Shown one piece after another: positions 21,539-60,757 of a stretch of DNA of 64,000 nucleotides. The DNA is taken from positions 4,468 through 68,467 of the forward strand of contig CAZGWK010000013.1 of NCBI GenBank assembly GCA_964529285.1, read 5' to 3'. The notes beneath the pieces are model-generated. The model saw only the letters and a list, made by a program, of their open reading frames with translations. It was not told the origin of the DNA and ran no database searches. This DNA is from an uncultured Actinomycetota bacterium (lineage in GTDB: Bacteria; Actinomycetota; Geothermincolia; Geothermincolales; RBG-13-55-18). The stretch's first letter is position 1. Each line of letters opens with the position of its first letter. The position numbers and the translations under genes were made by a program.

Positions 21539-21544
21539 GGGGGG

Positions 21545-21982: not shown

Positions 21983-21985
21983 GCA

Positions 21986-23131: not shown

Positions 23132-23215
23132 AGGCGGATTAATACGGTGTATGAATCGAAGGATATCGCCGCGAAGGGATACTTCCGCGTGATAAGGGAG
23201 GGGTGAGACTAAAAA

Positions 23216-24763: not shown

Positions 24764-24805
24764 CGGACCCGAGTCAATGGGATGGAGAGAAAGGGGAATG
24801 CCGTA

Positions 24806-26095: not shown

Positions 26096-26221
26096 AAGTC
26101 GACTGCCAATGCATGTTAAGAAGACGAGACGATATGCGCGCCGGATATGCAGGAGAGGGTAATGATCGGACTGCTGGCGGCGACGGCAGGCAGTCTGGCA
26201 CGCTGAAGGAGGGCTGAAAGT

Positions 26222-27406
26222 ATGGATAGTATTAGAGGCAAAACGGCCATCGTGGGCATAGGCGAGATACCCACCGGCATCTACCCGGAGAGGTCTTTCA
26301 TCGAACAGGCGGTAGCGGTCGGCGAGATGGCCATACGGGACGCGGGTATCGACAAGGAGGAGATCGACACCGTGATCCCCATCATCGCCGTGGCCAACCC
26401 CATAGACAACGCCAACCTGGTCTGTTCCTGGCTGGTGGAGGAGATGGGGATGGGAAAGACCTGCAAGGCAAATTTCGTCTGTGCCTCCGGCGGGTCGAGT
26501 TCCTCCAACTCCCTCAAGACCGCCATGGGGATGATCGTCTCCGGGCTGTCCGAGGCGGTGCTGGTGGTGCACACCGACAAGCTGGGGACGGGCCTGGACA
26601 TGGGAGCGGCCATCGCCCAGTTCGCGGTGGTCTCCATGAGCCAGGAGTACGAGATCCCTTACGGTTTCAGCCAGCTCGCCCTGGCGGGGTTCCTGCAGCA
26701 GCGCTACATGTACGACACCGGCACCACGGAGAGGCAGATAGCAAGCGTAGTAGAGACCCTGCGCAAGTGGGCGGCGCTCAATCCCAATGCCATGCTGCGC
26801 GAGTTGAGGACCGCCGACGATGTGCTGGCCTCCAAGATGATCTCCGCCCCGGTGAGGAAAAGGATGATGAACAAGCTGGCCGACGGCGCCTCTGCCTTCA
26901 TCGTCACCAGCGCGGAGAGGGCCCGGCAACTCAGCGACCGGCCGGCCTACATCCTGGGGGTGGGCTCCCGCTGTACCAACTTCACCGCCACCGAGGGACA
27001 GGGTGATTTCTACCAGACCTGGACTCCGGCGGCGGATGATGCCTTCGCCATGGCGGGCATCGGACGCGAGGACATCGACGTGGCGGAACTCTACGATGCC
27101 TTTCCCACCTTCATCCTCATCTCCATGGAACTTGTCGGGTTGTGCAAGAGAGGCACGGCGGGGGTTTTCTTCGAGGAAGGCAGCGCCGCGCCGGGAGGAA
27201 AACTCCCGGTGACCACCAACGGCGGCATGATGGCCCAGGGCCACACCGGCGCCGGTGGCGGCGTGGCGGTGCTGGTCGAGGCGGCCCGCCAGGTTATGGG
27301 CAAGGCGGGGGAGCGGCAGGTGCCGGACGTGAAATATGCCCTGGATACGGCCTCAGGAGGCATCGGTATGGACTTCCACGTCGGCATACTGGGAAGCGAG
27401 GTGTGA
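26222..27406 (+). CDS. Thiolase-like protein of the SCP-x / lipid-transfer (Ltp) type, the kind that partners with DUF35 proteins.
   Basis: The thiolase nucleophile region NFVCASGGSS, a C-terminal GGMMAQGHTGAGGGV loop, and no classic biosynthetic thiolase signature. A DUF35 gene follows immediately. Confidence 0.8.
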   Translation: MDSIRGKTAIVGIGEIPTGIYPERSFIEQAVAVGEMAIRDAGIDKEEIDTVIPIIAVANPIDNANLVCSWLVEEMGMGKTCKANFVCASGGSSSSNSLKTAMGMIVSGLSEAVLVVHTDKLGTGLDMGAAIAQFAVVSMSQEYEIPYGFSQLALAGFLQQRYMYDTGTTERQIASVVETLRKWAALNPNAMLRELRTADDVLASKMISAPVRKRMMNKLADGASAFIVTSAERARQLSDRPAYILGVGSRCTNFTATEGQGDFYQTWTPAADDAFAMAGIGREDIDVAELYDAFPTFILISMELVGLCKRGTAGVFFEEGSAAPGGKLPVTTNGGMMAQGHTGAGGGVAVLVEAARQVMGKAGERQVPDVKYALDTASGGIGMDFHVGILGSEV

Positions 27407-27409
27407 GAG

Positions 27410-27823
27410 ATGAACGAATATAACCTGCCGCTGCCGCTGATAACCACCCTGAGCAAGGTCTTCTGGGACGGGTGCAGGGAGAACAAGCTTCTCTACCAGC
27501 ACTGCAGGGACTGCGGGAGGGTCATCTTCTTCCCCAAACACCTCTGCCCGGACTGCATGGGCCACGACCTTGAATGGCTGGAGTCCAAGGGAAAAGGAGT
27601 GATCGACACCTTCACCGTGACCTACGAGGGCGCGCCGCCCGCCTTCATGGGGGTGACCCCCTACTGCGTGGCCGTCATCCGCATGGACGAGGGCTACCGC
27701 ATGATGAGCAACATCATCGACTGCGACTTTGAGGAACTCGAGTGCGAGATGCCCGTAGAGGTAATCTTCCAGCCGGTGACGGAGGAGATCACCCTCCCTA
27801 AGTTCCGGCCCGCAAAGTGCTAA
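27410..27823 (+). CDS. DUF35 OB-fold / zinc-ribbon protein (thiolase partner subunit).
   Basis: A CxxC...CxxC rubredoxin-like ribbon (HCRDCGRVIFFPKHLCPDCMG) followed by an OB-fold. It starts 4 nt after the thiolase stop. Confidence 0.8.
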   Translation: MNEYNLPLPLITTLSKVFWDGCRENKLLYQHCRDCGRVIFFPKHLCPDCMGHDLEWLESKGKGVIDTFTVTYEGAPPAFMGVTPYCVAVIRMDEGYRMMSNIIDCDFEELECEMPVEVIFQPVTEEITLPKFRPAKC

Positions 27824-27856
27824 TGGTCTACGTTGCGATAGAAAGGGGAATTCATA

Positions 27857-28513
27857 GTGCATGAGGGAGATACGAGCAAGCTGTTTTTGCTGACCCAAGC
27901 CGTTGCCGCCTTGGAGGAGGACGACCTCAATGATCTCCTTGAAGGTCTTATCTCCGTTGCAACACCTCCACTGGAGATAATCAACGCTCTCTCGAGGGGT
28001 ATGGAAAAAGTTGGAGCGATGTACGATGGAGGTATATATTTTCTTTCGGAACTGATCTTCTCGGGGGAGATATTCAAGGAGGCCATGGGCAGAATCAAGC
28101 CTCTCCTGGAAGATGAAGGGTGCGGGGAATCCATGGGTAAGGTGCTCATGGGAACGGTAAGAGGGGATATACACGACCTGGGCAAAAACATTGTAATAGT
28201 CCTTCTGGAGTGCGCGGGCTATGAGGTGATCGATCTCGGTGTGGACGTACCGCCCGAGGTTTTTGTTCAGGCCCTCAAAGACGATTCTATAACCCTGGTC
28301 GGGATGAGCTCATTGCTGACAACCGCTTTTGAGGCCATGGAGCAGACAGTCGAGGCTGTTTGTGAGGCGGGCTTGAGAGATGACGTAAGGATCATGATTG
28401 GTGGCGGGTCGACCAGCGACATGCTGAAGGAGAAGATCGGGGCCGACTTCTTCGGTAAGAACGCCACGGCGGCAGTTGAATTCGCAAACATGGTTTACGG
28501 GAAACAGCGGTGA
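27857..28513 (+). CDS. Cobalamin-binding corrinoid protein of a methyltransferase system (MtaC/MtbC-like).
   Basis: An N-terminal helical cap followed by the B12-binding Rossmann domain with the D-x-H-x-x-G motif (GDIHDLGKNIV) and a GG(G/S)xS region (IGGGSTS). It starts at a GTG with GAAAGGGGA 7 nt upstream. Confidence 0.8.
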   Translation: MHEGDTSKLFLLTQAVAALEEDDLNDLLEGLISVATPPLEIINALSRGMEKVGAMYDGGIYFLSELIFSGEIFKEAMGRIKPLLEDEGCGESMGKVLMGTVRGDIHDLGKNIVIVLLECAGYEVIDLGVDVPPEVFVQALKDDSITLVGMSSLLTTAFEAMEQTVEAVCEAGLRDDVRIMIGGGSTSDMLKEKIGADFFGKNATAAVEFANMVYGKQR

Positions 28514-48390: not shown

Positions 48391-48708
48391 GGTCGGGGGC
48401 AGGGCTCCGGGTGCTCCTTGGCGGCGGCCACGTCCTCTTCGTCCTTTGCGCGGGGAGCTCTCACCGTAGCGGTTGCTTCGTGCAACAGGCTCCGCATCTA
48501 TGTTTGGCCTCATGTAACCTTTTACGTCTGCGGCGTGTTTCCCCATTCAATACAAACAGTCAACACAACAGCCCGGGCACACGCGGATGCGGGAGAAGGA
48601 GGCTGTCCCGGGGCTGCACGGCAACAACTGGTTAGTCTATCAGGGGGCATCTCTTTGCCTTTTTTCTGAAAGCGTAGGGTAAGGCATAAGTCAAAGGAGG
48701 TAATGTTT

Positions 48709-50394
48709 ATGGTGAGCGTAAGTAACGTATGGCAGGGTATCTGCAAGGGCCTGTCCCGGTCTCAGCGGGGCTTGAATATATTGCTCGAGGAAGGCGAGAA
48801 GGTGTATACGCCTGCGGAGCTCAAGGCCGCCGCCGAAAGGGCTGCGCTCGGGCTGGTAAAAGCGGGCATAGTGCCCGGAGACCGCGTGGGCATCATGGCC
48901 CAGACCACGCCTTCCACGGTCGTTTCTTTCCTTGGTTGCTGGGCGGCGGGAGCGGTGGCCGTACCCCTGCCCCTGCCCATGCGCGCCGTCGAGCCGCACT
49001 CTTTCATAGAACAGAGCCGCAGGCGCCTGGAAAAGGTCGAGGCGAAGCTCCTCACCCTTCCGGGCTCACTCATCCCCATGGTCGGAGAGATGGGAGAAGG
49101 CATGCGCATCGTGGCAAGCGAGGAACTCGACCGCGCCGGGGACCTGCCTCCCGCATTATCCAAGCCGGGAGATACCGCCCTGGTGCAGTTTACCTCCGGC
49201 TCCACCACCGAGCCGCGCGGCGTCATCCTCTCCCATGCCAACGTCATGGCCAACGTAAGGGCCATAACCCGCAAGGTCAAGGTCTCGCGCCGCGACCGGA
49301 TAGTCTCGTGGATGCCGCTCTATCACGACATGGGCCTCATCGGCTTTCTCATCACCGCCCTGTCCGCGGGCGCAAGCCTCATCCTGATGTCGCCGCAGCG
49401 CTTCGTCTCCGACCCGGCATTCTGGATGCGTGCCATGGGCGAACACAAGGCCACCATCACCGGCGGGCCCAACTTCGCCTACGCACTCTCTACGCGCGTG
49501 CTCGCGTCGGGGAGCGCGGGAGACCTGGACCTCTCCTCACTGCGCCTGGCCTTGAACGGGGCAGAAGCGGTGGATCACGAGGTAATGGACGGCTTCGTCA
49601 CGGCAGGGGCGGCATACGGCCTGCGGCCGGAGGTGCCGTACCCCGTTTACGGACTGGCCGAGGCCACGCTCGCGGTGACCTTCCCGCAGCCGGGAAAGAG
49701 GTACGGCCTGGACCACGTATCGCGGGAGGGCATAGAGGAGGACGGTTTCGCCCGCCCGGCGGAACCGGGAGAGGAGGGAACGCGCACCCTGGTCTCCCTG
49801 GGGAGCCCTCTCGATGGGGTAGAGGTGAGCGTGTTCAGGGAGGACGGCAGCGAGGCTGGTGAGAGGGAGATAGGCGAGGTGTGCGTGCGTGGTGATTCCG
49901 TGATGCAGGGATACTGGGCGAATGCGGCCGCCACCGCCGAAGCGCTGCGAGGAGGCCGCCTGCATACCGGAGACCTGGGCTACTTCGCCGGCGGCGAGCT
50001 CTACCTGGTGGGAAGGATCAAGGACATGGTCATCATCGGAGGCCGCAACCTCTTCCCCGAGGACGTGGAGCGGTGCGTGGAACGGATAAGGGGCGTGCGC
50101 AAGGGGAATGCGGTTGCCTTCGGTGTGAGCACGCGCCGCGGCCGCGAGCGCCTGGTGCTCGTCGGTGAGACTCACCTCTCATGCATGCAGGCAGCCGGGG
50201 AGACGGCGCGCGCCATCTCCTCCACAGTGAGGGAGGAGATAGGGGTACCGGTGCGGGAGGTGGTCCTGGTGCCAGCGGGCAGCCTCCCCAAGACGTCGAG
50301 CGGAAAAAAACGCCGCTTCCTCTGCCGCGACCTCTACCTGGGGAACGCCCTGCAGGCGGTGGCCCGCAGCGGTGCGGCGGTCATCGGCATTTGA
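48709..50394 (+). CDS. Fatty acyl-AMP ligase (FAAL)-type adenylating enzyme.
   Basis: LVQFTSGSTTEPRGVILSHANVMANV, a FAAL-like motif I/II with the typical insertion. The start is set at the ATG at 48709, 8 nt after AAAGGAGG. The ATG at 48703 is only 2 nt from the Shine-Dalgarno. Confidence 0.8.
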   Translation: MVSVSNVWQGICKGLSRSQRGLNILLEEGEKVYTPAELKAAAERAALGLVKAGIVPGDRVGIMAQTTPSTVVSFLGCWAAGAVAVPLPLPMRAVEPHSFIEQSRRRLEKVEAKLLTLPGSLIPMVGEMGEGMRIVASEELDRAGDLPPALSKPGDTALVQFTSGSTTEPRGVILSHANVMANVRAITRKVKVSRRDRIVSWMPLYHDMGLIGFLITALSAGASLILMSPQRFVSDPAFWMRAMGEHKATITGGPNFAYALSTRVLASGSAGDLDLSSLRLALNGAEAVDHEVMDGFVTAGAAYGLRPEVPYPVYGLAEATLAVTFPQPGKRYGLDHVSREGIEEDGFARPAEPGEEGTRTLVSLGSPLDGVEVSVFREDGSEAGEREIGEVCVRGDSVMQGYWANAAATAEALRGGRLHTGDLGYFAGGELYLVGRIKDMVIIGGRNLFPEDVERCVERIRGVRKGNAVAFGVSTRRGRERLVLVGETHLSCMQAAGETARAISSTVREEIGVPVREVVLVPAGSLPKTSSGKKRRFLCRDLYLGNALQAVARSGAAVIGI

Positions 50395-50536
50395 ACCCAT
50401 TCCCCTCAAGGGGTGATGTGAGACCGGCAAGAGGGGCGCAGTATGCGCCCCTCGACCATGCTTTGAGGCCGAGGATGAGGGTTACACATGGCTCGGTTCT
50501 GATACGGGACTTCGGTCGTATATCGCCGCGTCGTCT

Positions 50537-51460
50537 CTATAAGGAGCCGAGTATTCTTTCTCCCTCCTCGACCATGCGGCGTATCACCTCTCCCGCGGGC
50601 AATATCTCGTTTATGGCCCCGCAGCATTCCCCGGCTATTACCAGCCCGGATCTGACGTCGCCGTCCTGGAAGGCGGCTGGTGCCCGCATCCAGGCCTCGG
50701 TGGCCTTGGATACTCTCTCCTGCGGCGGCATGTCTCTGATACTGCGCGCGAGTTCGTTTGCCAGTACCCTGACGCTGCCCATGCCCATGGGAAGGACGGT
50801 GGTGTCTCCCGGCTGCGCTTCCAGCAGGGCTTGCTTGATATCGGTATGGATGCGGCATTCCTCGGTAAGCATGAGGCCCGTCCCGATCTGCACGCCCTTT
50901 GCCCCCATGGCGAAGGCAGCCGCGTAACCGCGCCCGTCGTGGATGCCGCCGGCGGCAATAACGGGGACGTCCACCGCCTCGACCACTTGGGGGACAAGGG
51001 TCAGGGTGGAAACGGCCTGGGGAGCCTGTACGCCGCCCGATTCTCCTCCTTCGGCCACGATGCCGTCCACGCCGGCCTGCGCGGCCTTGACCGCCAGGGC
51101 GGGCGAAGGGACGACGTGAAAGACCCTTATGCCGGCCTCGGCGAGCAGGGGGGCCAGGGTGGCGGGCGAACCTGCCGATGTGGTAGCCACCGTTATTCCT
51201 TCATCGGCCATGACCTCCACCATGGCGGGGGAGAGGGGATTGCGGGCCACCAGGTTTACGCCGAAGGGCCTGGAGGTGAGCTCTCGCACCTCGCATATGG
51301 CCTTGCGCAGGCCGTCCGCGTCCATCCCCACCGAGGCGATCAGGCCGAGGGCCCCGGCCTCTGAAACGGCGGCCACCAGTTCCGCGTTGGAAATGGTGCC
51401 CATGGCTCCCATTATCACCGCATGTTCAATGCCGAGAAGCTCCGCTACTGATTTCATCAT
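50537..51460 (-). CDS. Nitronate monooxygenase-family FMN enzyme (NMO / 2-nitropropane dioxygenase / FabK-like).
   Basis: LGIEHAVIMGAMGTISNAELVAAVSEAGALGLI at the N-terminus, the GADGIVAEGGESGG and AGGIHDGRG FMN-binding motifs, and a TIM-barrel of ~300 aa. Confidence 0.8.
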   Translation of the reverse strand: MMKSVAELLGIEHAVIMGAMGTISNAELVAAVSEAGALGLIASVGMDADGLRKAICEVRELTSRPFGVNLVARNPLSPAMVEVMADEGITVATTSAGSPATLAPLLAEAGIRVFHVVPSPALAVKAAQAGVDGIVAEGGESGGVQAPQAVSTLTLVPQVVEAVDVPVIAAGGIHDGRGYAAAFAMGAKGVQIGTGLMLTEECRIHTDIKQALLEAQPGDTTVLPMGMGSVRVLANELARSIRDMPPQERVSKATEAWMRAPAAFQDGDVRSGLVIAGECCGAINEILPAGEVIRRMVEEGERILGSL

Positions 51461-51467
51461 CCCCTCC

Positions 51468-52523
51468 TCAGGCCAGGCCGCGTTCCTGCAGTATCCTCGC
51501 GTTCATCTCCACCATGTTCGCGGGCGGCACCACGGCGTCTACCTTGGGTACCATCTCTATGGCGTCCGCCGGGCAGGTGGGTACGCACAACCCGCACCCG
51601 ATACACCTGGCCGTGTCCACATCCATGTATTCGTCTCCCTCGACGATAGCGTCGATCTGGCAGCGGTCCAGGCAGGTGCCGCATGCGGTACATTCATCCG
51701 CATCTATCACGGCCCTGTAGGTGGACTGCACCTCGTCGGCCGGCCTCTCCATGGTGGAGAGCCCCCGCAGCATGCCGCAGCAGCAGCTGCAGCAGCAGCA
51801 GATGTTCACGAAGTTCTGGGCGTTGCTGGGTGAGAGCACCAGCGCGGCCTCCTCGGCCTCGTCCAGGATCTCCAGGCATTCCTCGAGGCTTATCTTGCGA
51901 CCGATGCCGTTCTCGGCGTAGTAGTCAGCGGCGAAACCGAAGACCAGGCAGGTCTCCAGGGGGCGTTCGCACTCGCGCCCCAGGAGACCGCGCTCCACGC
52001 GGCAGATACAGTCCGCCACGGCAAATTTGTCCTGACCTTTCACCATCTCCCGGACGCGGTCGTAGGTCGCGACCTCCTTGCCTGCCTCCACTGCCGTCTC
52101 CACCGGGACCACCCTAAGCTGTTTTGTCTTTCCGCCGCTCCAGGATTCCGTCAGGTGGGGCAGGTATTCGTCGAGCAGCTCGGCCAGCTCACGGTCCATG
52201 CTCTTGAGGTGAAACTCGTATATGCCGACGAGGAAGGACATGGCCATGTACATGGTTTGCTCGCCCGCCCTGATCCTGAAGATCGACCCCTGACCGGACA
52301 TGGACTCCAGCATCTCTGCCGCCTTGGCCTCGTCCATGCCGGCGCGCTCCGCGATGGCTGCCGCCGTCTCCGGAAAGATATTAAGGTGCATCTGGAGTTC
52401 CGCTTCCTCCGGGGTGAAATACCGCGCGAGCAGCTTCAGTTCCACCCCGCTCTCGGTGGAGGGAAATCCACCCGGCAGACCGTCCATGAACTCCCGCAGC
52501 CTCACATAAACATCCTCCGCCAT
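51468..52523 (-). CDS. Cys-rich iron-sulfur protein, paralog 1 of 3. N-terminal helical domain, a Cx(6-7)C...CCCCxCCC block, and a C-terminal 2x[4Fe-4S] ferredoxin domain.
   Basis: The start is MAEDVYVRLREF (ATG at 52523, with AAGGAG 5 nt upstream), not the longer ORF-track start. Motifs are CICRVERGLLGREC, NICCCCSCCCG, CTACGTCLDRCQ and CIGCGLCVPTCP. Confidence 0.7.
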   Translation of the reverse strand: MAEDVYVRLREFMDGLPGGFPSTESGVELKLLARYFTPEEAELQMHLNIFPETAAAIAERAGMDEAKAAEMLESMSGQGSIFRIRAGEQTMYMAMSFLVGIYEFHLKSMDRELAELLDEYLPHLTESWSGGKTKQLRVVPVETAVEAGKEVATYDRVREMVKGQDKFAVADCICRVERGLLGRECERPLETCLVFGFAADYYAENGIGRKISLEECLEILDEAEEAALVLSPSNAQNFVNICCCCSCCCGMLRGLSTMERPADEVQSTYRAVIDADECTACGTCLDRCQIDAIVEGDEYMDVDTARCIGCGLCVPTCPADAIEMVPKVDAVVPPANMVEMNARILQERGLA

Positions 52524-52540
52524 GCTCGCTCCTTTCACCC

Positions 52541-53626
52541 CTAGGGTTTGATGACCTCCATGAACGCCTCCAGCTTGCCCTTCTCCTGCAGGATCTTCAT
52601 GCCCATCTCGGAGGTGGTCAGCGGGGGTTCCGCGTACTCGTCCGTCTTCACCAGCCGCAGGGCTCCCTCGGGGCAGCCGCTGACGCACAAGCCGCACCCT
52701 ATACAGCGTTCTCGCTTCACTACCGCCGTCCCGTTAGATACCTCTATGGCCTGCACCGGGCACCTCTCGTCGGCGCAGATCCCGCACCCCGTACACAGCT
52801 CCTCATCGACCAGCGGTGTAAAACCTGAGGAGGTGAAGACTGGGGGGTTGCCCCATTGCGTGCTCATGCGCAGCAGGCCGCAGCAGCAGGTGCAGCAGTT
52901 GCACACGAAGGTCAGGTGCTCCTGCACGTTGTTGATCTGGTGCACCAGCCCGGCCTCGTCGAACTCCCTGAGCTTCTCCTTCATCTCCTCCTTGGTTATA
53001 TAGCGGCCGAAGCCCCGCTCCACCAGGTAGGTACAGGTCTCGTCGAAGAGCATGCAGGCTTCAAGCGGGTTGTCGCAGTTCCTCTCCATGTCGCGGCAGG
53101 CGCAGGTGCCGATGCCCACCACCCTGGCCTTGTCGATCATCTCGTAGACCTTCTGGTAGGGGAGCACCCCCGGCTCGCTATCCACTTCCTCCTGTATGGG
53201 GATGATGCGGGAGAACCGGGTGTCGGTGCCGCCGAAACCCCTGCCGAGCTTGGGCAGGTAGCTTTTCCACAGCGGGGTGAGCCTGGCCCTCATCTCGTCT
53301 GACATCCCCTTCATGTAGGGGAACTCGAAGAGGCCCGGCATCACGGGAAGCAGGGCGTAGCTGCGCTTACCTTCCTTTTCGCGCACAAAGACCACGGCCT
53401 TGTCCGCGAGTGACTCGAGGCAGCGTTCCGCCGTCTTCTCGTCCACGCCGGCGCGGCGCGTCACGTCCTCCACGCTGAAGGGCCTGAATCCGAGGCCTAA
53501 AGCCACTTCTGCCTCCTCCTGCGTGAAGAATATCTTGAGGATCTTTATGATCTCGGGCGCGGGCTGGCAGCCGGTGGGGTGGCGGTCCAGCAGTTCCCGC
53601 AGCTGCTCGTATACATCTTCCGGCAT
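52541..53626 (-). CDS. Cys-rich iron-sulfur protein, paralog 2 of 3.
   Basis: The start is MPEDVYEQLREL (ATG at 53626, with GAGGAG 6 nt upstream). Motifs are CACRDMERNC, FVCNCCTCCCG, CTGCGICADERCP and CIGCGLCVSGCP. Confidence 0.7.
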   Translation of the reverse strand: MPEDVYEQLRELLDRHPTGCQPAPEIIKILKIFFTQEEAEVALGLGFRPFSVEDVTRRAGVDEKTAERCLESLADKAVVFVREKEGKRSYALLPVMPGLFEFPYMKGMSDEMRARLTPLWKSYLPKLGRGFGGTDTRFSRIIPIQEEVDSEPGVLPYQKVYEMIDKARVVGIGTCACRDMERNCDNPLEACMLFDETCTYLVERGFGRYITKEEMKEKLREFDEAGLVHQINNVQEHLTFVCNCCTCCCGLLRMSTQWGNPPVFTSSGFTPLVDEELCTGCGICADERCPVQAIEVSNGTAVVKRERCIGCGLCVSGCPEGALRLVKTDEYAEPPLTTSEMGMKILQEKGKLEAFMEVIKP

Positions 53627-53696
53627 ATGCATCTCCTCTTCCATGCACTCGTTGTTTTCAGGAATGCAATATTTAAATTAAATGTGTTGTTGGATG

Positions 53697-54752
53697 CTAC
53701 TGCGTCTGGCCGACTATGAACTCCTCCAGGGTGGGGACTCCCTTGGGCGCCTCACGGCGCTCCAGGGTCAAAGCCTCTCCGGAGCAGGTGGGGATGCACA
53801 CCCCGCACCCAAGGCACAGGTCCTCGTCTACCTGGGCGATCTCCTCGTCGTCAAGCTTAATGGCCTCCACCGGGCAGCGTTCCTCGCAGGTGCCGCACCC
53901 GATACATAATTCCTCATCCACCCGTGGTACGTAGCTGGAAGGGGCCATGGCATTCGCATAACCCAACTGCTTCCTGGTCTGGATGAAAGCGCAGCAGCAG
54001 CCGCAGCAGCAGCAGATGGTGGAGACCTTGCCCTGGTAGTTGTCGGTGGAGAACACCAGCCCCTCCTCGTGGGCATCCTCCAGCTTCTCGAGGGTCTCCT
54101 CCAGGGTCAATTCCCTGCCCATGCCCTGCTCCACGATATAACGTCCCATGGAGCCGAAGTGGAAGCAGTTCTCCCGCTCGTGCTCGCATCCCTCACCCGC
54201 ATAGGCCCTTATCTGTCGGCAGGGGCAGTAGGCCACCGCCCGGTAGTCGACCTCCTCCACCAGGTTTCGAACCGTCTCATAGGGGAGCACCTGCGATTCG
54301 GAGGCGATCTCCTCCTGCACGGGCACAGCTCTCAACAAGGGGACCTTTCTGCCGCCGACCTCTTCAGCGAAAGCGGATCTGAAGTACTTGTTCCAGAGCG
54401 GGGCAAGTCTGCGCACTATCTCGTTGTCCTTGCCCGGCCAGAAGGGCGTCTCGGAGAAGCCCACTACGGTGGGGAGCAGGCGGTATTTCGACTCCGCTCC
54501 CTTCACTCTTTTGAATACGGTGCCCTTGGAGGCCATGGTGTCCAGCATTCCCTCCAGTTCCTCGGCGGGCATGCCAACCGTCCCGGAGAGCTCCTCCAGG
54601 GCCGTGTTCATGAAGGGAAGCTTGACTGCCAGTTCCGCCTCCTCGGGAGTGAACAAGATGCGCAGTATGTCCATCAACTCGTCGCTCATGGGAGCCCCGA
54701 TGGGCATCTCGTCCAGGTGCTGGGCCAGCGCTTCGTACACATCGTCCGACAT
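53697..54752 (-). CDS. Cys-rich iron-sulfur protein, paralog 3 of 3.
   Basis: The start is MSDDVYEALAQHL. Motifs are CPCRQIRAYAGEGC, ICCCCGCCCA, CIGCGTCEERCP and CLGCGVCIPTCS. Confidence 0.7.
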   Translation of the reverse strand: MSDDVYEALAQHLDEMPIGAPMSDELMDILRILFTPEEAELAVKLPFMNTALEELSGTVGMPAEELEGMLDTMASKGTVFKRVKGAESKYRLLPTVVGFSETPFWPGKDNEIVRRLAPLWNKYFRSAFAEEVGGRKVPLLRAVPVQEEIASESQVLPYETVRNLVEEVDYRAVAYCPCRQIRAYAGEGCEHERENCFHFGSMGRYIVEQGMGRELTLEETLEKLEDAHEEGLVFSTDNYQGKVSTICCCCGCCCAFIQTRKQLGYANAMAPSSYVPRVDEELCIGCGTCEERCPVEAIKLDDEEIAQVDEDLCLGCGVCIPTCSGEALTLERREAPKGVPTLEEFIVGQTQ

Positions 54753-54779
54753 GTGATTCTCCTCCCTGTCTAAAAGTAT

Positions 54780-55412
54780 CTATGACCGTTCCTTAGTCTC
54801 CGCGAACTGCTTGAGGATGAGCGTGATGCTGTTGCGCATGGGTGCGGGGTCGTGGGTGACCTTGCTGATCATGATCCCGCCCTCCAGGGCGCTGATGGCG
54901 AAATCAGCGTACCTTGCGCAGTCGAAGTCGGGCGGCAGCTCTCCCGCTGCTTTCATCTCCTCCAATCCGGAAGCGATGATTCCCGACCAGTCGCGGAAGG
55001 CCCTGGCGAGTCGCTCGCGGAAGCCCTCGCTCAGGTTGCTGGTCTCCAGCGCCAGGTTGCCCAGGATGCATCCGCGGGTGCATTCGGCCTCCTCGACGAT
55101 GCCCTGTATGCCCTTGAGCATGGCCTCGATGCGCTGGTAGGGGGACAGTTCCGGAAGGTCGAGGACCTTTTTCAGGCTGTCCATGATATGAGCGGAGGCA
55201 TTCTCGATCACCGCGTATCCCAACTCCTCCTTGGACGAGAAATGAAAGTAGAAGCTTCCCTTGGTGACCCCGGCTGCCTCTATGACGTTGTCGATGGTCG
55301 TCTTGGCATAGCCCTTCTCGTACATGAGGAGAGTGGCGTAGCCTACGATGCGCCGTCGCGTCTTCTCTCCCTTGGATACTGTCGTCTTTGTACTGGACAA
55401 ATCAATCTCCAT
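54780..55412 (-). CDS. TetR-family transcriptional regulator, first gene of the Fe-S protein operon.
   Basis: The HTH YAKTTIDNVIEAAGVTKGSFYFHF. The candidate operator overlaps its own promoter. Confidence 0.8.
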   Translation of the reverse strand: MEIDLSSTKTTVSKGEKTRRRIVGYATLLMYEKGYAKTTIDNVIEAAGVTKGSFYFHFSSKEELGYAVIENASAHIMDSLKKVLDLPELSPYQRIEAMLKGIQGIVEEAECTRGCILGNLALETSNLSEGFRERLARAFRDWSGIIASGLEEMKAAGELPPDFDCARYADFAISALEGGIMISKVTHDPAPMRNSITLILKQFAETKERS

Positions 55413-55418
55413 AAATAG

Positions 55419-55432
55419 ACCAACTAGTCGGT
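55419..55432. promoter_or_regulatory. Imperfect 14-bp palindrome ACCAACTAGTCGGT, 7-20 nt upstream of the TetR start codon and overlapping a TATAAT-like box. Candidate autoregulatory operator with a leaderless or short-leader promoter.
   Basis: 12 of 14 positions are self-complementary. On the minus strand the context is AATTATACCGACTAGTTGGTCTATTTATG. Confidence 0.4.
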
Positions 55433-55563
55433 ATAATTATTTTAGCAGCCGCTTTCTTCCTGTCAAGCAAGATTGAGAGGCTTGATCGGGAGGGCGGTGT
55501 CCGCTCGGCCTTTGCAGGCAAGGCAAAAGCTATTTCGAGAAGTGCGGGAAACGAATGGATCGC

Positions 55564-56433
55564 TCAGATCGACTGCAGCACTCGCTTCGGTAACCTCCTT
55601 CGCCACCAGGCGAAGAACTTCGCCACGCCCAGCCCGGAGCGGGTCGCCAGGCGTGGGAACAGCCGGTGGTAGTGGTAAATGATCTTCGAGGGCAGGCCTG
55701 GTATGACCAGGAACCGGTTGCACGAGATCGCGTCCACCACTTGGCGGGCTACCTTGCGAGGCGAACCGCCCAGGCTCAGAAGGAATCTTTCCACCAGACG
55801 TGCGCCGATGAAGTGGAGTGGCAGGTCCTTGATGGTAGACGTATTCGCCAGGGGCGTCTTGACGTAGCCGGGGCAGACGAGAGTCACACCTACGCCGTTG
55901 CCCCTCAGATCATAGTAGAGGACTTCGGTGAAGCCGGTGACGGCGAACTTGCTGGCGCAGTATGCCGACTGCCCGGGGATGGGGATGATGCCGTCGATAG
56001 ACCCGATGTTTACGATGTGTCCCGACCTTCGCTCTATCATGGACGGCAGGAAGGTCTCGATGGTGTTGATGGTGCCCATGAGGTTGACGTCGATAATGCG
56101 CCGCATCTCGTCGTGGTCGGTGGCGGAGAAATGGGCGATGAGGGTGATGCCGGCACAGTTGACCAGGATATCCGGGCTGAGGCCTTTCTCTTCCAGTTCC
56201 TCTCTGACGCGGCGCAACTCGTCCCTGGAGGTCACGTTGGCCTGAAAGCCGAAAGCCTGGTAGCCCTCGCCCCTCAACTCGGCTAAGCTTTTATCCAGGG
56301 AATCCCTGTTTATGTCGAGGAGGATGGGCTCGGCGCCCTTGCCGGCGAGTCTTGCCGCTATGGCAAGACCGATACCGCTTCCACCCCCGGTTACCAGGGC
56401 CTTTTTGCCCTTTACGTCCATGCTGTTTCGCAT
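55564..56433 (-). CDS. Short-chain dehydrogenase/reductase (SDR).
   Basis: TGGGSGIGLAIA (the Gly-rich NAD(P) motif), NCAG, the catalytic Y-x3-K (YCASKFAV) and PG. The start is set at the ATG at 56433. A GTG at 56442 is possible. Confidence 0.8.
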   Translation of the reverse strand: MRNSMDVKGKKALVTGGGSGIGLAIAARLAGKGAEPILLDINRDSLDKSLAELRGEGYQAFGFQANVTSRDELRRVREELEEKGLSPDILVNCAGITLIAHFSATDHDEMRRIIDVNLMGTINTIETFLPSMIERRSGHIVNIGSIDGIIPIPGQSAYCASKFAVTGFTEVLYYDLRGNGVGVTLVCPGYVKTPLANTSTIKDLPLHFIGARLVERFLLSLGGSPRKVARQVVDAISCNRFLVIPGLPSKIIYHYHRLFPRLATRSGLGVAKFFAWWRRRLPKRVLQSI

Positions 56434-56582
56434 CGCATTCACCCGTCTATTTATATCACGGATACCGGCAAGTTACACTGATGGAGGTTAGCGCTTCTCC
56501 CGGGCGCAAGCACGCCGACTGCGCACCCATCTTCCAGAGCGTCCATCGCGCTCCTCCTCATAATATTTGAAATGAGAAACCT

Positions 56583-56595
56583 TTGCAATATGCAA
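56583..56595. promoter_or_regulatory. Perfect inverted repeat TTGCA-ata-TGCAA in the divergent intergenic region between the SDR gene and the GlpA-like oxidoreductase cluster.
   Basis: TTGCAATATGCAA, read directly, in a relatively AT-rich ~300-nt intergenic region. Confidence 0.25.
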
Positions 56596-56754
56596 ATTAT
56601 CGCGGGAAGGCCGGCGCAAGCCCGTTGCTGGTGTGTTTGTGCGCATATGCCATGTTTAATATAATCGATGCAGCGTCTCGGTGAGTATTGCTCATCGTAA
56701 AGCGGCGTTTCCGCGGACTTATGCGGAAAACCTCAAAGAGAAAAGGATGGTATC

Positions 56755-58236
56755 ATGCCTGCCCTCGAAACTGAAATCCTCATCATCGGCGCCGGCGTGC
56801 TGGGCGCTGCCACTGCAAGAGAGCTCTCCAGGTACAAGCTCGATGTCACCGTGGTGGAGAAGAACGTTGATGTAGGCTGGGGCATCACCAAGGCCAACGT
56901 CGGCGTGGTATGCCAGGGAAGGGATACTCTCGAGTTCCGGCCCGAATACCACCGCAGCCACCTCCTGTGGAAGTCCATTCCCGTTATGGAGCCCCTGTGC
57001 AAGGAACTGGAGGTGCCCTTCAAGAATATAGGGTGCCACATAATGATCAAGGACCTGACCAAGAAGGAGAAGCTGGACAAGGGAGCAAAGCGCACGGAGA
57101 GCCTGGGGCTGGGCACCGACAGGTACTGCACCTACTCCGAGCTCAAGGAGATGGAGCCCTACGTATCCAAGGACATCGTGGGCAGCCTCTACGATCACGC
57201 CATCTCCATCGTGCACCCGGTTGTCTATACCGAGGCCCTGATGGAGAACGCCACGGCCAACGGGGTCAAGCTCATGCTGGAGACGGAGGTCACCGGCATC
57301 GAGCATGACCACCACATGTTCACCGTGCAGACGAACCAGGGGGAGATAAAGGCGCGCTATATCGTCAACGCGGCGGGGGAGTGGGTGGACAGGATAGCGG
57401 CCATGGTGAACGCCGACGACTTCGTACTCTTTCCCATCAAGGGATACGTGGGCGTGATGGACAGGAAATGCGGCGGCATGGCCAACAGCCTGCTGGCGCT
57501 CTTTCCCGAGGAGCCAGGTGACATGAACATCATCGTGCCCTCGGTGGAGGGCAACCTTCTCTTCGGTATCCAGCTGCAGATAAACCGCAGGCACGATCGA
57601 TCCTTCACGGATCATATGGCAAGGGAGGCCCTGAAGAACGCCCGCAAGGTGATACCGGACCTCTCCGAGAAGGACGTCATCAAATCGTTCTGCGGTTTCC
57701 TCATGTTCCGCAACTTCGAGATAGGATGGCACGAATGCGAGGTAGCCATGTCGCAGAGGGCGGAACGTTTCATAAACATGACCATCGGCTACCCGGGGGT
57801 GAGCGCAAGCCCCGGGGCCGCCATGGAGGTGGTGGATATTCTCCAGAAGGACGGCGTGAAGATGGTGCCGGACCCGAAGTTCAACCCCCGCCGCAAGGCC
57901 ATCCCTGATTTCAGCGAGCTGTCCGATGCGAAGAGGCGCGAGCTGATCAAGAAGGACCCGCTCTACGGCCACGTGATATGCCGCTGCGAGACGGTGACCG
58001 AGGGAGAGATCGTGGAGGCTATAAGGCGTGGCGCGACCACCCTGGACGGGGTCAAGTTCCGGGTCAGGCCCGGGACGGGACGCTGTCAGGGAGGTTTCTG
58101 CGGGCCGCGCGTCACGCGTATCCTCGCCCGCGAACTGGGCATACCGGAGACCGAGGTCACCAAGAAAGGCGGCGAGTCCGAACACCTCCATTACCGGACG
58201 AAGGAGATCCTGGAAGAAGGTGAAAAAAATGCCTAG
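56755..58236 (+). CDS. FAD-dependent dehydrogenase (GlpA / glycerol-3-phosphate dehydrogenase-like) with a C-terminal BFD-like [2Fe-2S] domain.
   Basis: LIIGAGVLGAATARELS (GxGxxG), a DAO-type fold, and C-terminal CRCETVTEGEIVEAIRRG...GRCQGGFCGP, which is a BFD-like cysteine pattern. Confidence 0.8.
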   Translation: MPALETEILIIGAGVLGAATARELSRYKLDVTVVEKNVDVGWGITKANVGVVCQGRDTLEFRPEYHRSHLLWKSIPVMEPLCKELEVPFKNIGCHIMIKDLTKKEKLDKGAKRTESLGLGTDRYCTYSELKEMEPYVSKDIVGSLYDHAISIVHPVVYTEALMENATANGVKLMLETEVTGIEHDHHMFTVQTNQGEIKARYIVNAAGEWVDRIAAMVNADDFVLFPIKGYVGVMDRKCGGMANSLLALFPEEPGDMNIIVPSVEGNLLFGIQLQINRRHDRSFTDHMAREALKNARKVIPDLSEKDVIKSFCGFLMFRNFEIGWHECEVAMSQRAERFINMTIGYPGVSASPGAAMEVVDILQKDGVKMVPDPKFNPRRKAIPDFSELSDAKRRELIKKDPLYGHVICRCETVTEGEIVEAIRRGATTLDGVKFRVRPGTGRCQGGFCGPRVTRILARELGIPETEVTKKGGESEHLHYRTKEILEEGEKNA

Positions 58237-59482
58237 GCGGGTGGACGTTGCGGTTATCGGAGCCGGTCCGGCGGGCCTTGCCGCGGCAATCGCAGCCAGG
58301 GAGAGGGGAGCGGAGAGGGTCCTCATCGTGGAAAGGGCGGAACAGCTGGGAGGGCTCCTGCCCCAGTGCATACACAACGGCTTCGGGCTTCTCTATTTCA
58401 AGGAGGATATGACCGGGCCGGAGTACGAGAAGGCTTTCATCGACAAGGCCATGGACCTGGGTGTGGAGGCACAACTCGAGACCATGGTCATCGACTTCAA
58501 CGCCAAGCGGGAGATGACCGCCGCGAGCCGCAAGCACGGTTACATGAAGTTCAAGCCGGGTGCGGTGGTCCTGTCCATGGGGTGCCGCGAGAAGGCCAGG
58601 TTTGCTCTGGGCATACCGGGAAACAGGCCCGCGGGCGTGATGACCGCGGGGACCTGCCAGCGCTACGTCAACATCGAGGGCTATATCCCCGGGAAGAGAT
58701 ATGTCATCCTGGGCTCTGGCGATATCGGGATGATCATGGCCCGCCGGCTCACCCTGGAGGGCGCCGAGGTGGAGGCAGTAGTGGAGTTGATGCCCTGGGC
58801 GGGAGGCCTTATACGCAACGAAGTGCAGTGCCTGCACGATTTCGGCATCCCCCTGCTTCTCGAGCACACCGTCACCTTTATCCACGGTGAGGATAGGCTG
58901 GAGGGTGTGACGGTGTCGAAGGTGGACGCGGAGAGGCGTACGGTGAAGGGCTCGGAGCGCTTTTACCCCTGCGACTGCCTGCTCCTCTCCGCCGGGCTCA
59001 TCCCCGAGAACGAGCTCTCTCTCAAGGCCGGGGTGGAGTTGGACGCGGTTACCGGCGGACCGCTGGTGGACCAGTACCGCCAGACCAGCGTGCCCGGTGT
59101 CTTCGCCGGCGGCAACGTGGTGCAGGTGCACGACCTGGTGGACTGGGTTAGCTGGGAGGCGGAGATAGCCGGCGCCGCGGCCGCGGAATTCGCCGATAAA
59201 GGTAAGCTCAAGGCCGCGAGGGCGGTAAGGGTGGTGCCCGGCAAGAACATCAAGTACGTGGTGCCCCAGTATATATCGGGCAAGGACGACGTAACCCTGT
59301 ACATGAGGGTGGCGGAGCCTGGGATGAAGGCGACGGTCAAGGTGGGCGACGTGATTTCGAAACGCTACCGTACCGTGCGGCCCAGCGAGATGGTCATCAT
59401 CGACATCAAGGCCGACAGGCTGAAGGAGTCGGGGGTGGGCGAGGAGTTGGTCGTTGACTGCGAGACAAAAGGAAGTGGTTGA
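58229..59482 (+). CDS. FAD/NAD(P)-binding pyridine-nucleotide-disulfide-type oxidoreductase, second subunit of the GlpA-like module.
   Basis: VDVAVIGAGPAGLAAAIAARERGAE and a second dinucleotide motif VILGSGDIGMIMARRL. The ATG at 58229 overlaps the upstream stop by 8 nt. The ORF-track start at 58028 lies inside the upstream gene. Confidence 0.8.
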   Translation: MPRRVDVAVIGAGPAGLAAAIAARERGAERVLIVERAEQLGGLLPQCIHNGFGLLYFKEDMTGPEYEKAFIDKAMDLGVEAQLETMVIDFNAKREMTAASRKHGYMKFKPGAVVLSMGCREKARFALGIPGNRPAGVMTAGTCQRYVNIEGYIPGKRYVILGSGDIGMIMARRLTLEGAEVEAVVELMPWAGGLIRNEVQCLHDFGIPLLLEHTVTFIHGEDRLEGVTVSKVDAERRTVKGSERFYPCDCLLLSAGLIPENELSLKAGVELDAVTGGPLVDQYRQTSVPGVFAGGNVVQVHDLVDWVSWEAEIAGAAAAEFADKGKLKAARAVRVVPGKNIKYVVPQYISGKDDVTLYMRVAEPGMKATVKVGDVISKRYRTVRPSEMVIIDIKADRLKESGVGEELVVDCETKGSG

Positions 59483-59483
59483 G

Positions 59484-59864
59484 ATGGCGGCCAGGGAGAC
59501 CATCATCTGCATAGGTTGCCCGCTGGGATGCAGGGTGACCGTGACCCAGGACAAGAAAGGCAACGTCACCGCGATGAAGGGGGCGGAGTGCAAACAGGGT
59601 GAGAAATACGTGCTCGAGGAGCTGAAGAACCCAGTACGCACCCTCACCGCCACGGTACGTACCGGCGACGAGGCCTTTCCCCTCCTTCCAGTCCGCACCT
59701 CCAAGCCGGTTCTCAAGGTGTTGTTGAAACCGATCATGAGGGAGACGGTCAAGGTAAAGGTAAAGCCCCCCGTCAAGGAGGGTGACGTGATCGTCAAGAA
59801 CGTCGCCAAGTCTAAGGCGGACCTCGTAGCCACCACGGATTGGCCCGGACAGATGGGAGTATAG
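59484..59864 (+). CDS. DUF1667 zinc-ribbon protein (small subunit commonly encoded with the two flavoproteins).
   Basis: ICIGCPLGCRVTV...KGAECKQGEKY. The ATG at 59484 follows the AAAGGAAGTGG Shine-Dalgarno, 1 nt after the upstream stop. Confidence 0.75.
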   Translation: MAARETIICIGCPLGCRVTVTQDKKGNVTAMKGAECKQGEKYVLEELKNPVRTLTATVRTGDEAFPLLPVRTSKPVLKVLLKPIMRETVKVKVKPPVKEGDVIVKNVAKSKADLVATTDWPGQMGV

Positions 59865-59866
59865 AG

Positions 59867-60757
59867 ATGTCTAACGGCAACGAGATCGACGTTGTGACCT
59901 TGTACCTCTCGCGCAAGGGCCTCCAGGCGGCGGAAAGGGTGGCCGACGACCTCATCGGCTGGCCCTGCAGCATAGTGGTGGTGGATAAGGCGGGAGCTAT
60001 AATCGCGGGACACCGCATGGAAGGCGCACCGCCCGCCACCTTCGATATCGGGGTGGAGAAGGCCTGGACGGCGGCGACTTTTCTCGCTCCCACCCTCATG
60101 CTGGGGCGCATGACCGACCCCCGTACCGCACTGATGCCCCTGGACCAGCTCCCCCTCGGCCAGCACGGCATGGGCCTGCAGTTCAAGCACAAGGGGAGGC
60201 TGACCACCATCATGGGAGGCATCCCCATACGCGATAAGGACATGAAGGTCATAGGGGGCGTGGGCACCAGCGGCACCCCTTCAGCCCTTGACGACAATAC
60301 CGTGAGCCAGCGCTGCTGGTCCGCCATGTACGACGCCGAGGACCCTCCCCTGCAGAGCGGGCTGGACGACTACGTGAAAGTGGTGGAGGCGGCCATGGCC
60401 AAGGCCGAAGACATGGGCCTGCCGGTCAGCGTGTGCCTCTCCGACGCGGAAGGATGGCCCAGGGTGTTCTACCGCATGGACGGGGCCATCTATCCTTCTG
60501 CTGAGCTGGCCAGGGACAAGGCCTGGACGGCGGCCGCCTTCCGGGCGCCCAGCTCCGATATAGCCGGCTATGGGGTCAAGTCCCTTCCCGGGCTGGGTAT
60601 ACCCACCAGCGGCTGGAACGAGCGGGTCTGCCCCGTGCCCGGCGGGCTGCCAATCTTCGACGCGGACGGCGCGCTGGTCGCCTCGCTAGGCGTTGCCGGC
60701 GGCACCACCGAACAGGACGTGCGCATAGCCAAAGCCGCCGTAAAGGCCTACAAATGA
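59867..60757 (+). CDS. Tandem GlcG/HbpS-like (DUF336) protein with two ~140-aa domains.
   Basis: Each half has the pattern (S/V)VVVDKAGAIIAGHRMEGAPPATFDIGVEKAWTAATF / (V)CLSDAEGWPRVFYRMDGAIYPSAELARDKAWTAAAF, typical of GlcG/PduO-C domains. The ATG at 59867 is 2 nt after the upstream stop. Confidence 0.7.
   Translation: MSNGNEIDVVTLYLSRKGLQAAERVADDLIGWPCSIVVVDKAGAIIAGHRMEGAPPATFDIGVEKAWTAATFLAPTLMLGRMTDPRTALMPLDQLPLGQHGMGLQFKHKGRLTTIMGGIPIRDKDMKVIGGVGTSGTPSALDDNTVSQRCWSAMYDAEDPPLQSGLDDYVKVVEAAMAKAEDMGLPVSVCLSDAEGWPRVFYRMDGAIYPSAELARDKAWTAAAFRAPSSDIAGYGVKSLPGLGIPTSGWNERVCPVPGGLPIFDADGALVASLGVAGGTTEQDVRIAKAAVKAYK

Follow-up and report, generated by a model that had tools for sequence, protein, structure and literature searches.

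The question raised by the 64-kb window analysed here (a stretch of 64,000 nucleotides of contig CAZGWK010000013.1, from an uncultured Actinomycetota bacterium) is what could be done by three tandem, Cys-rich iron-sulfur (Fe-S) proteins, called W1, W2 and W3 below, whose genes lie on the minus strand between a TetR regulator gene and a flavoprotein gene (Table 1). A first-pass annotation of this DNA had proposed a TetR-controlled operon of three paralogous Cys-rich Fe-S proteins and a flavoprotein of the nitronate monooxygenase (NMO) family, and this core claim is supported by our analysis: all the open reading frames (ORFs) that it had placed here are present on the minus strand in the ORF list, and the TetR and NMO-family genes at the two flanks were confirmed by Pfam. 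What emerges is a redox operon of the Fe-S/flavin type, governed by a one-component repressor and centred on a domain that has no family or fold assignment; the family formed by W1, W2, W3 and their relatives probably carries out or powers stress-induced chemical reductions.

Table 1. Features of the Fe-S/flavin operon and their coordinates in the 64-kb window (aa, amino acids; nt, nucleotides; FMN, flavin mononucleotide).
Feature	Coordinates	Strand	Description
Sigma-70-type promoter, TTGACA - 16-nt spacer - (TG)TAAAAT	55439..55466	-	11/12 consensus matches, extended -10 TG
Candidate TetR operator, imperfect palindrome ACCGAC-TA-GTTGGT	55419..55432	.	Between the -10 element and the TetR start codon
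TetR repressor, TetR_C_13 class (NemR/AcuR/YxaF-like), 210 aa, first operon gene	54780..55412	-	Pfam TetR_N and TetR_C_13
Paralog W1, 351 aa	53697..54752	-	Acidic winged helix, Cys-rich domain, 2x[4Fe-4S] ferredoxin domain; poly-Cys block ICCCCGCCCA
W1 Cys-rich central domain coding region (aa 106-272)	53937..54437	-	Without family or fold match
Paralog W2, 361 aa	52541..53626	-	Same three-domain architecture; poly-Cys block VCNCCTCCCG
Paralog W3, 351 aa	51468..52523	-	Same three-domain architecture; poly-Cys block ICCCCSCCCG
FabK-like FMN flavoprotein (Pfam NMO), 307 aa, last operon gene	50537..51460	-	7 nt after W3

The three Fe-S proteins are indeed paralogous, with pairwise identities of 34-38% over their full length and an E-value of 2e-52 between W1 and W3 in BLASTP. 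The motifs quoted in the first-pass annotation are all found in the alignment of the three sequences, which start with M-S/P/A-D/E-D-V-Y and share the N-terminal motif FT(P/Q)EEAE(L/V). In W1, the winged helix occupies residues 1-95, the Cys-rich domain residues ~106-272 and the ferredoxin domain residues 273-335, and the full-length predicted model (predicted local distance difference test, pLDDT, 90; predicted template-modelling score, pTM, 0.88) indicates a compact three-domain unit. Regarding the start codons, an AGGAG Shine-Dalgarno site precedes the ATG of W2 at 53626, and another in-frame ATG is located at 53644. The W3 ORF can be extended to a GTG at 52697 in the ORF listing; its start was placed at the ATG at 52523 because both the homologs and an AAGGAG Shine-Dalgarno site support this position.

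The central domain is the part of these proteins that carries the question. It comprises ~170 residues with the cysteine spacing CxCx10Cx6C...CxCCxCCC in each paralog, and its cysteines in W1 are C176, C178, C189, C196, C247, C249, C250 and C252-254. Alignment, suggested in the first-pass annotation as the way to define the Cys ligands, gives eight invariant and two near-invariant positions in this domain: among 133 representatives differing by more than 50%, C176, C178, C189, C196, C247, C249, C250 and C254 are 99-100% conserved, C252 and C253 are 91-94% conserved, and three polar residues, R141, R179 and N238, are ~95% conserved. W1, W2 and W3 all carry every invariant position, including R141, R179 and N238, and the family can be defined by the signature CxCx(6-10)Cx6C ... 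CxCCxCCC followed by the ferredoxin domain.

The W1-W3 central domain has no family or fold assignment. Residues ~100-272 have no match in Pfam, NCBIfam or the PDB sequences; a Pfam search of 26 central domains at E <= 1 gave nothing consistent; a PDB sequence search with W1 matched the ferredoxin domain only; and with a profile of the 26 central-domain sequences the PDB gave ferredoxin domains and, apart from these, a single spurious hit to a designed PPR repeat. Modelled alone, the domain is predicted with a pLDDT of 86, and a Foldseek comparison of this model with 350,542 chains detected no structural neighbour (best E = 0.65). The first-pass annotation had left the N-terminal and poly-Cys domains without a named family, and the proteins indeed cannot be assigned to a characterised one, since a confident hidden Markov model (HMM) or structural match was sought and none was found outside the ferredoxin domain. 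The CPC motif and the vicinal cysteines had prompted an assignment to the catalytic subunit of ferredoxin:thioredoxin reductase (FTR) or to the CCG domain of HdrB, which was rejected, as neither HMM nor fold searches supported membership in either.

In contrast to the central domain, the C-terminal domain (~275-330) is recognised by Pfam and NCBIfam, which in addition give only a weak winged-helix signal. Each paralog presents two CxxCxxCxxxC motifs matching Fer4 Pfam families; Fer4 reaches 44-48 bits against a cut-off of 21.1 in all three, several dicluster models also score above cut-off, and the three proteins therefore belong to the bacterial-type 2x[4Fe-4S] ferredoxins (Fer4, Fer4_21, Fer4_7). 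All eight cysteines of this domain are 91-95% conserved in the same sample of representatives. An identity as RnfB (TIGR01944 / PRK05113) was rejected: the paralogs score 39.5, 37.3 and 50.7 bits against a cut-off of 68.7, the profile is matched only at its positions ~95-167, corresponding to the ferredoxin part, and its first ~94 positions are unmatched in all three. Among the loci with an examined gene table, none showed other rnf genes.

The N-terminal domain had been described as helical. The FT(Q/P)EEAE motif of that description is present, but the domain is not purely helical; it is an alpha/beta winged helix of the MarR/ArsR-type fold, with sub-threshold Pfam matches to TrmB and DUF7342 at residues ~48-96. 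Its isoelectric point (pI) is 4.33, 5.05 and 4.50 in the three paralogs (in W1, 18 D+E vs. 8 K+R), a basic DNA-binding surface was not found, and there is no basic residue among the conserved positions of the recognition helix. Judging from its composition, the acidic winged helix is probably not DNA-binding and, because of this acidity (pI 4.3-5.0), we read it as a docking or dimerisation domain.

The operon runs over 50537-55466 on the minus strand in the order promoter, palindromic candidate operator, TetR, W1, W2, W3 and the gene for a FabK-like flavin mononucleotide (FMN) protein. The gaps between the five genes are short (27, 70, 17 and 7 nt, in this order) and each gene is preceded by a Shine-Dalgarno site; therefore, a single operon transcript is plausible. 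The W1-W2 spacer (53627-53696), 70 nt long, is unusually AT-rich within a region of ~60% GC. No promoter or terminator was detected in it on the minus strand, its folding is no better than that of shuffled sequence (z = -0.67), and an Rfam search of 50000-57000 returned no RNA element. The first-pass annotation had noted that loss of the Cys motifs on resequencing would undermine it; the motifs are unchanged, as the 4.9-kb region shows 0 mismatches between two independent assemblies from different sequencing runs, and the Cys motifs and runs are therefore not sequencing errors.

The first gene encodes a repressor of the NemR/AcuR-type class, with scores of 76.7 bits for TetR_C_13 (cut-off 27) and 51.5 bits for TetR_N (cut-off 24). 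Its best NCBIfam match is AcuR (131.6 bits, E = 2.2e-38), below the 247-bit cut-off, and it is only 22% identical to Escherichia coli NemR, so that it cannot be equated with either protein at the equivalog level. Matches in the PDB include the solved NemR, AcuR-like and YxaF structures (3bru, YxaF, NemR 4yze). Residues C115 and K184 align with C106 and K175 of NemR, the pair that forms the NemR thiol switch (PMC7464077), and both are invariant in the 8/8 TetRs linked to the Fe-S family and in NemR.

The palindromic candidate operator proposed in the first-pass annotation is sustained by phylogenetic footprinting in eight loci (loci of the family are designated L followed by a number). The promoter lies directly upstream of the 14-nt palindrome ACCGACTAGTTGGT at 55419-55432, which belongs to an 18-nt inverted repeat, abuts the TetR start codon and is the sole zero-mismatch copy in the window. 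L003 has the same candidate operator and L086 one with a single base change, despite diverged flanking DNA. The palindrome reads ACCGACTAGTTGGT in the window and in L003, ACCGACTGGTTGGT in L086, ACCAACCGGTCAGT in L007 and AGACGACCGGTCTA(A/T)T in L012, L026, L034 and L049. It lies inside a TTGAC(A/G)-type promoter in 8/8 TetR-linked loci, the TTGAC(A/G) -35 element being found at the equivalent position in 7/7 of the loci other than the window, and this footprint over eight loci supports the call of a putative operator. A near-copy with two mismatches, CCCGACTGGTTGGT at 21917-21930, was rejected as a chance match because it falls within the 3'-terminal part of a MaoC-like dehydratase coding region and because ~3 matches at <= 3 mismatches are expected by chance.

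The last gene had been annotated as an FMN protein of the nitronate monooxygenase family. Its Pfam NMO domain is clear (200.6 bits vs. a cut-off of 28, E = 5.6e-59), but the protein is closer to FabK than to true nitronate monooxygenases: its closest solved relatives are FabK enzymes (7l00, E = 1.6e-61), and true nitronate monooxygenases (4q4k, 3bw2) are much weaker matches. The NCBIfam FabK model (TIGR03151) is matched over its full length with 263.4 bits, short of the equivalog cut-off of 453.1. On these similarities, the "NMO" gene is best described as encoding a FabK-like FMN ene-reductase. Nitronate monooxygenase activity is implausible because it requires O2 and the lineages carrying the Fe-S family are strictly anaerobic.

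The Fe-S family extends far beyond this operon. An exhaustive HMMER scan of 1.84 billion representative proteins, with clusters at 50% identity, retrieved 2,501 clusters at E <= 1e-3 and 1,199 at E <= 1e-10, and a scan of one genome per GTDB species gave at least 319 loci. The closest locus among the matches listed is that of Candidatus Geothermincola primus (Actinomycetota), with 71% identity. Further hosts are Desulfobacterota, Syntrophales, Dehalococcoidia, Acidobacteriota, Archaeoglobaceae, Nezhaarchaeota and Asgard archaea (Jord-, Hod- and Promethearchaeota). The family is almost wholly confined to uncultured anaerobes; among the best 80 of the at least 319 loci, a single one comes from an isolate, Desulfocarbo indianensis SCBM. 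The W1 subfamily is conserved across phyla at about 50% identity, whereas W2 and W3 have close orthologs in related Actinomycetota only (in loci L003 and L086, 81-86% identity for W2 and 73-86% for W3). No published description of the family was found in the literature. In source databases its members are labelled "4Fe-4S binding protein", "ferredoxin", "RnfB" or, in one case, "ATP-binding protein"; this last label (WP_458012551.1) and the JGI label "electron transport complex protein RnfB" are unsupported by the domain content.

Fusions give a first idea of what the central domain may be doing. In one protein (P0130), a GltD-type NAD(P)H/FAD (flavin adenine dinucleotide)/Fer4_20 module is placed after the Cys-rich domain, for which reason we marked this domain as redox-active. 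Another (P0226) carries an SRPBCC small-molecule-binding domain, and other members are fused to a B12-binding radical SAM enzyme or to PilZ.

The gene neighbourhoods were then compared in 85 loci, in which all ORFs within 6 kb were clustered, antisense shadows removed and representatives annotated; 45 of these loci are well flanked, with at least 3 kb on both sides. One family copy is present in 67 of the 85 loci, two in 9 and three in 9. A MarR gene is found in 13 loci, nearly always immediately upstream and on the same strand, and a TetR_C_13-type TetR gene upstream on the same strand in 8. Of the well-flanked loci, 22 have a regulator or a reductase-type partner: a MarR or TetR gene stands immediately upstream in the same orientation in 15, and a reductase-type partner is present in 14. 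In 11 loci, family genes are all that the regulator controls, so that the Fe-S protein is itself the regulated output. OhrR, MgrA and SarZ are the closest relatives of the MarR neighbours, of which 11 of 13 carry a conserved helix alpha-1 cysteine; in L072 and L079 it occupies the OhrR position. That two unrelated regulator classes, TetR and MarR, both resemble thiol-based sensors of oxidants or electrophiles is suggestive.

The reductase-type partners are diverse. FabK-like NMO proteins are encoded in 12 loci, in 10 of which, from several phyla, the gene is directly adjacent to family genes on the same strand; molybdopterin oxidoreductases in 6 loci; old yellow enzymes (OYE) in 3-4, that of L010 corresponding to the TIM-barrel half of the BaiCD/FadH-type profile only; and BcrAD-type ATPases in 3, all Jordarchaeia in the neighbour table. 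In the last of these settings (L016, L017 and L018, from Jordarchaeia and an uncultured archaeon), the only family gene is of the W1 type, and 260-285 nt downstream of it, in the same orientation, lies the gene of a BcrAD/BadFG-family ATPase, the activator type of benzoyl-CoA reductases and 2-hydroxyacyl-CoA dehydratases. Nine loci encode a protein of 250-390 aa related to QueG and reductive dehalogenases (RDH). This QueG/RDH-like family, itself uncharacterised, adjoins the Fe-S family at L005 6936-7733, L024 7728-8534, L041 8890-9645 and six other loci; it has no Pfam match, shows weak NCBIfam similarity to reductive dehalogenases and QueG (E ~1e-15 to 1e-16) and has two ferredoxin-type Cys motifs of the CxxCxxCxxxCP type.

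The richest version of the system is L015, from an uncultured Desulfobacteraceae (CAZHAH010000023.1, 3535-13113), where one same-strand string of genes contains three paralogs and four different reductases with one MarR, in the order MarR, Fe-S paralog, molybdopterin oxidoreductase, QueG/RDH-like protein, FabK-like protein, W1-type paralog, third paralog and OYE. Closer to the window, L003, its closest relative, has the TetR gene and all three paralogs with no NMO gene, and L086 (uncultured Actinomycetota, CAYWXM010000063.1) has TetR, a W1 remnant and intact W2, W3 and NMO genes. The remnant, at 9353-9685, is a W1 ortholog reduced to its first 77 residues directly upstream of the intact W2, and could be either gene decay or an assembly artefact. 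From these gene contents, the components are modular, and neither a W1-W2-W3 heterotrimer nor the flavoprotein is obligatory. Therefore, the heterotrimeric complex suggested in the first-pass annotation is unlikely in an obligate form, given also the single copy in 67 of the 85 loci. The TetR-Fe-S-NMO synteny, also raised there, holds in part: the link to the flavoprotein recurs in other phyla, but L003 shows that it is not obligatory, and an obligate FabK partner is unlikely.

From these observations, the reading that we favour, tentatively, is that the operon is an autoregulated low-potential reductase module, inducible by stress or xenobiotics, with the Cys-rich domain as its working end. 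For the inducing signal, the cofactor content, the direction of electron flow and the class of substrate, we infer the following scheme. In an anaerobic, Actinomycetota-like organism, the NemR/AcuR-class repressor would sit on the palindrome overlapping its own promoter and would leave the DNA once an oxidant, an electrophile or a small ligand modifies or binds it, and this release would switch on the three paralogous cytoplasmic Fe-S proteins and the FabK-type FMN ene-reductase. Low-potential electrons would enter each Fe-S protein via the C-terminal 2x[4Fe-4S] ferredoxin domain and would then reach the central domain, whose 8-10 conserved cysteines would hold the Fe-S cofactor(s) and which, as the working end, would reduce a small oxidised or electrophilic substrate. 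The acidic winged helix would serve for docking or dimerisation, and the FabK-like enzyme would work alongside on an activated C=C bond. The reasons for favouring the central domain as the working end are the many units made up of just a regulator and Fe-S genes, the conserved polar residues beside the cysteines and the high conservation across phyla; conserved polar residues such as these (R141, R179 and N238) are seen more often in active sites than in plain electron wires. A more specific version joins these elements: the central domain would be a new Fe-S cofactor-binding fold, its ten cysteines holding either a non-canonical cluster or a [4Fe-4S] cluster beside redox-active cysteine pairs, and the family would be an unrecognised class of ferredoxin-dependent reductases, with disulfides or persulfides, organic peroxides and electrophiles as candidate substrates. 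Controlled by thiol-switch regulators, these enzymes would give strict anaerobes (from Actinomycetota and Desulfobacterota to Asgard archaea) their own equivalent of defences of the NemA, Ohr and thioredoxin-reductase type. As a whole, we consider this version rather doubtful.

Several points weigh against the favoured reading. Proteins with multiple [4Fe-4S] clusters are oxidant-labile, a poor fit to an oxidant response. The GC...K pair of the TetR may be common to TetR_C_13 proteins in general, without acting as a thiol switch, and, except in L072 and L079, the MarR cysteine is displaced two residues upstream from the position used for sensing in OhrR. The pairing of the family with diverse reductase modules in 14 of the 45 well-flanked loci fits an electron-donor role equally well, and the enrichment of AMP-ligase, enoyl-CoA hydratase, thiolase and short-chain dehydrogenase/reductase (SDR) genes nearby may point to catabolism.

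The electron-donor role is the core of another possible, if somewhat doubtful, explanation, in which the family would be an electron-transfer adaptor, a four-cluster "super-ferredoxin" whose extra [4Fe-4S] clusters only relay electrons to separate reductases (FabK-like here; OYE, molybdopterin, QueG/RDH-like, radical SAM or BcrAD-type elsewhere), with the winged helix as a docking module and the three paralogs serving different partners. Indeed, the Fe-S protein stays constant beside varied reductases, with a partner within 1.5 kb on the same strand in 21 of the 85 loci and 14 of the 45 well-flanked ones, as exemplified by the three paralogs and four different reductases of L015 under one MarR. 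The OYE of L010 covers positions 2-347 of the 642 of the BaiCD/FadH-type profile and so is without the FAD/NAD(P)H domain, the QueG/RDH-like partner has its own two ferredoxin-type Cys motifs, and the fusions to the B12-radical-SAM enzyme and the GltD-type module also agree with a relay. Nevertheless, two thirds of the well-flanked loci show no partner, the 11 loci with a regulator and family genes have no reductase nearby (including L003 with all three paralogs), and an identity of ~50% across phyla together with the conserved R141, R179 and N238 exceeds what electron relays usually show. Catabolism, in turn, would mean a catabolic or lipid pathway for a carboxylic acid carried as a coenzyme A (CoA) or acyl carrier protein thioester, with the TetR as a metabolite sensor (cf. 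AcuR and acrylate), the FabK-like enzyme reducing an enoyl thioester and the Fe-S paralogs coupling this step to ferredoxin. AcuR is the best NCBIfam match of the TetR, but with a score about half of the family cut-off; the operon has a fatty-acyl-AMP-ligase-like gene (48703-50394) on one side and an SDR gene (55564-56442) on the other, both with synteny in L003 and L086, but the ligase gene runs in the opposite direction and the SDR gene has a separate promoter region. Likewise, AMP-ligases (10 loci), enoyl-CoA hydratases (8), SDRs (7) and thiolases (5) occur within 6 kb of family genes, but in other loci the ligase and SDR genes are usually outside the same operon, in either orientation, and no genes of CoA metabolism are attached at the regulator-plus-Fe-S-only loci. 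Such a pathway therefore seems unlikely to us, even though FabK-annotated genes of anaerobic degraders of aromatic compounds have been suggested to encode acyl-CoA reductases (PMC6164631).

The two remaining explanations take up the winged helix and the poly-Cys block separately. The weak Pfam matches to TrmB and DUF7342 would suit Fe-S redox sensors or transcription factors whose winged helix binds DNA under the control of the cluster state, but the acidity of these domains, the recognition helix devoid of conserved basic residues, the presence of a dedicated MarR or TetR over the same genes and the tandem triplets beside enzymes make this highly improbable. Hardly more probable is a detoxification or trafficking factor, in which the poly-Cys block would be a site for soft metals or metalloids (Hg, As, Cu, Cd) or would serve to store or carry Fe-S clusters or sulfane sulfur. 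Vicinal cysteine runs are known in metal-handling proteins such as ArsD and HgcB, and HgcB is among the NCBIfam matches here, via the ferredoxin domain only; yet a cysteine pattern fixed at 99-100% with a ferredoxin domain is typical of cluster ligands rather than of loose metal-binding runs, and no mer, ars or cop genes turned up in the neighbour census.

Two further clusters of the window are recorded here. Beyond the operon, the SDR gene at 55564-56442 (minus strand) is followed by a divergent plus-strand cluster up to 60757, which encodes a GlpA-like FAD/BFD-[2Fe-2S] oxidoreductase (56755-58236), a Pyr_redox_2 flavoprotein (~58229-59482), a DUF1667 protein (59454-59864) and an HbpS/GlcG-like protein (59840-60757). 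This block, 55564-60757, is syntenic with the TetR/Fe-S operon in L003, homologs of several of its genes are also present in L086, and it may be functionally linked to the operon. A second cluster, redox- and beta-oxidation-like, at 19379-28513, encodes a TetR, an amidohydrolase_2 protein, MaoC-type dehydratases, an acyl-CoA dehydrogenase, an AMP-ligase, an OYE flavoprotein of 437 aa, a thiolase-like protein and a B12-binding-domain protein.

The interest of the family lies first in its most conserved part, a ten-cysteine domain with neither Pfam model nor structural neighbour, which may hold an undescribed cofactor environment. Its context suggests how strict anaerobes power inducible reductive detoxification or xenobiotic reduction, a matter far less mapped than the aerobic NemR, OhrR and SoxR regulons. 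Should the proteins act only as a relay, the family would be the missing electron donor for reductase modules with no adjoining NAD(P)H-oxidising domain, namely OYE barrels (shown for L010), FabK-like enzymes, cytoplasmic QueG/RDH-like proteins and molybdopterin catalytic subunits. The compact operon, with its clear promoter, candidate operator and three paralogs, is directly usable for experiments, and the family is a well-defined, tractable "known unknown" in which new Fe-S chemistry has a real chance of being found.

How does the system compare with known ones? With RnfB and the polyferredoxins, it has the C-terminal 2x[4Fe-4S] ferredoxin domain in common. Hcp, which receives electrons from a separate partner, its reductase Hcr, is a stress-regulated, Cys-rich Fe-S reductase found in anaerobes and holds an unusual cluster; the likeness is one of analogy, as no sequence or fold similarity was detected in any search. 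The FTR (CPC...CPC...CHC) and the CCG domain of HdrB, with its non-cubane [4Fe-4S] cluster, have more cysteines than a cubane needs, and W1-type members recall them by a CPC (C176-P-C178) and adjacent cysteines, a resemblance that does not amount to membership; the proline is not kept in W2 (CAC) or W3 (CIC). The link to thiol-stress regulators would fit a disulfide chemistry, by analogy with these enzymes.

A chain of [4Fe-4S] clusters and an FMN TIM barrel reducing activated C=C bonds are found together in dihydropyrimidine dehydrogenase (DPD; PreT/PreA), the clostridial enoate reductases, BaiCD/FadH and 2-naphthoyl-CoA reductase, and the P0130 fusion with its GltD-type NAD(P)H/FAD/Fer4_20 module resembles the N-terminal half of DPD. 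In contrast to these enzymes, which have no equivalent of the Cys-rich domain, the Fe-S and FMN parts are separate proteins in the window operon, and the operon encodes no FAD/NAD(P)H module. In its layout, the operon is reminiscent of nemR-nemA(-gloA) of E. coli, where the gene of a TetR_C_13-class repressor likewise opens its own operon, ahead of the gene for an FMN enzyme of the ene-reductase type. The two differ in that the window TetR is distant from NemR, the flavoenzyme is FabK-like instead of an OYE, and three multi-cluster Fe-S proteins without nemRA counterpart lie between regulator and flavoenzyme. Nevertheless, all eight family-linked TetRs, that of the window included, retain the counterparts of NemR Cys106 and Lys175, and in other loci of the family genes for OYE of the NemA type replace or join the FabK-like gene.

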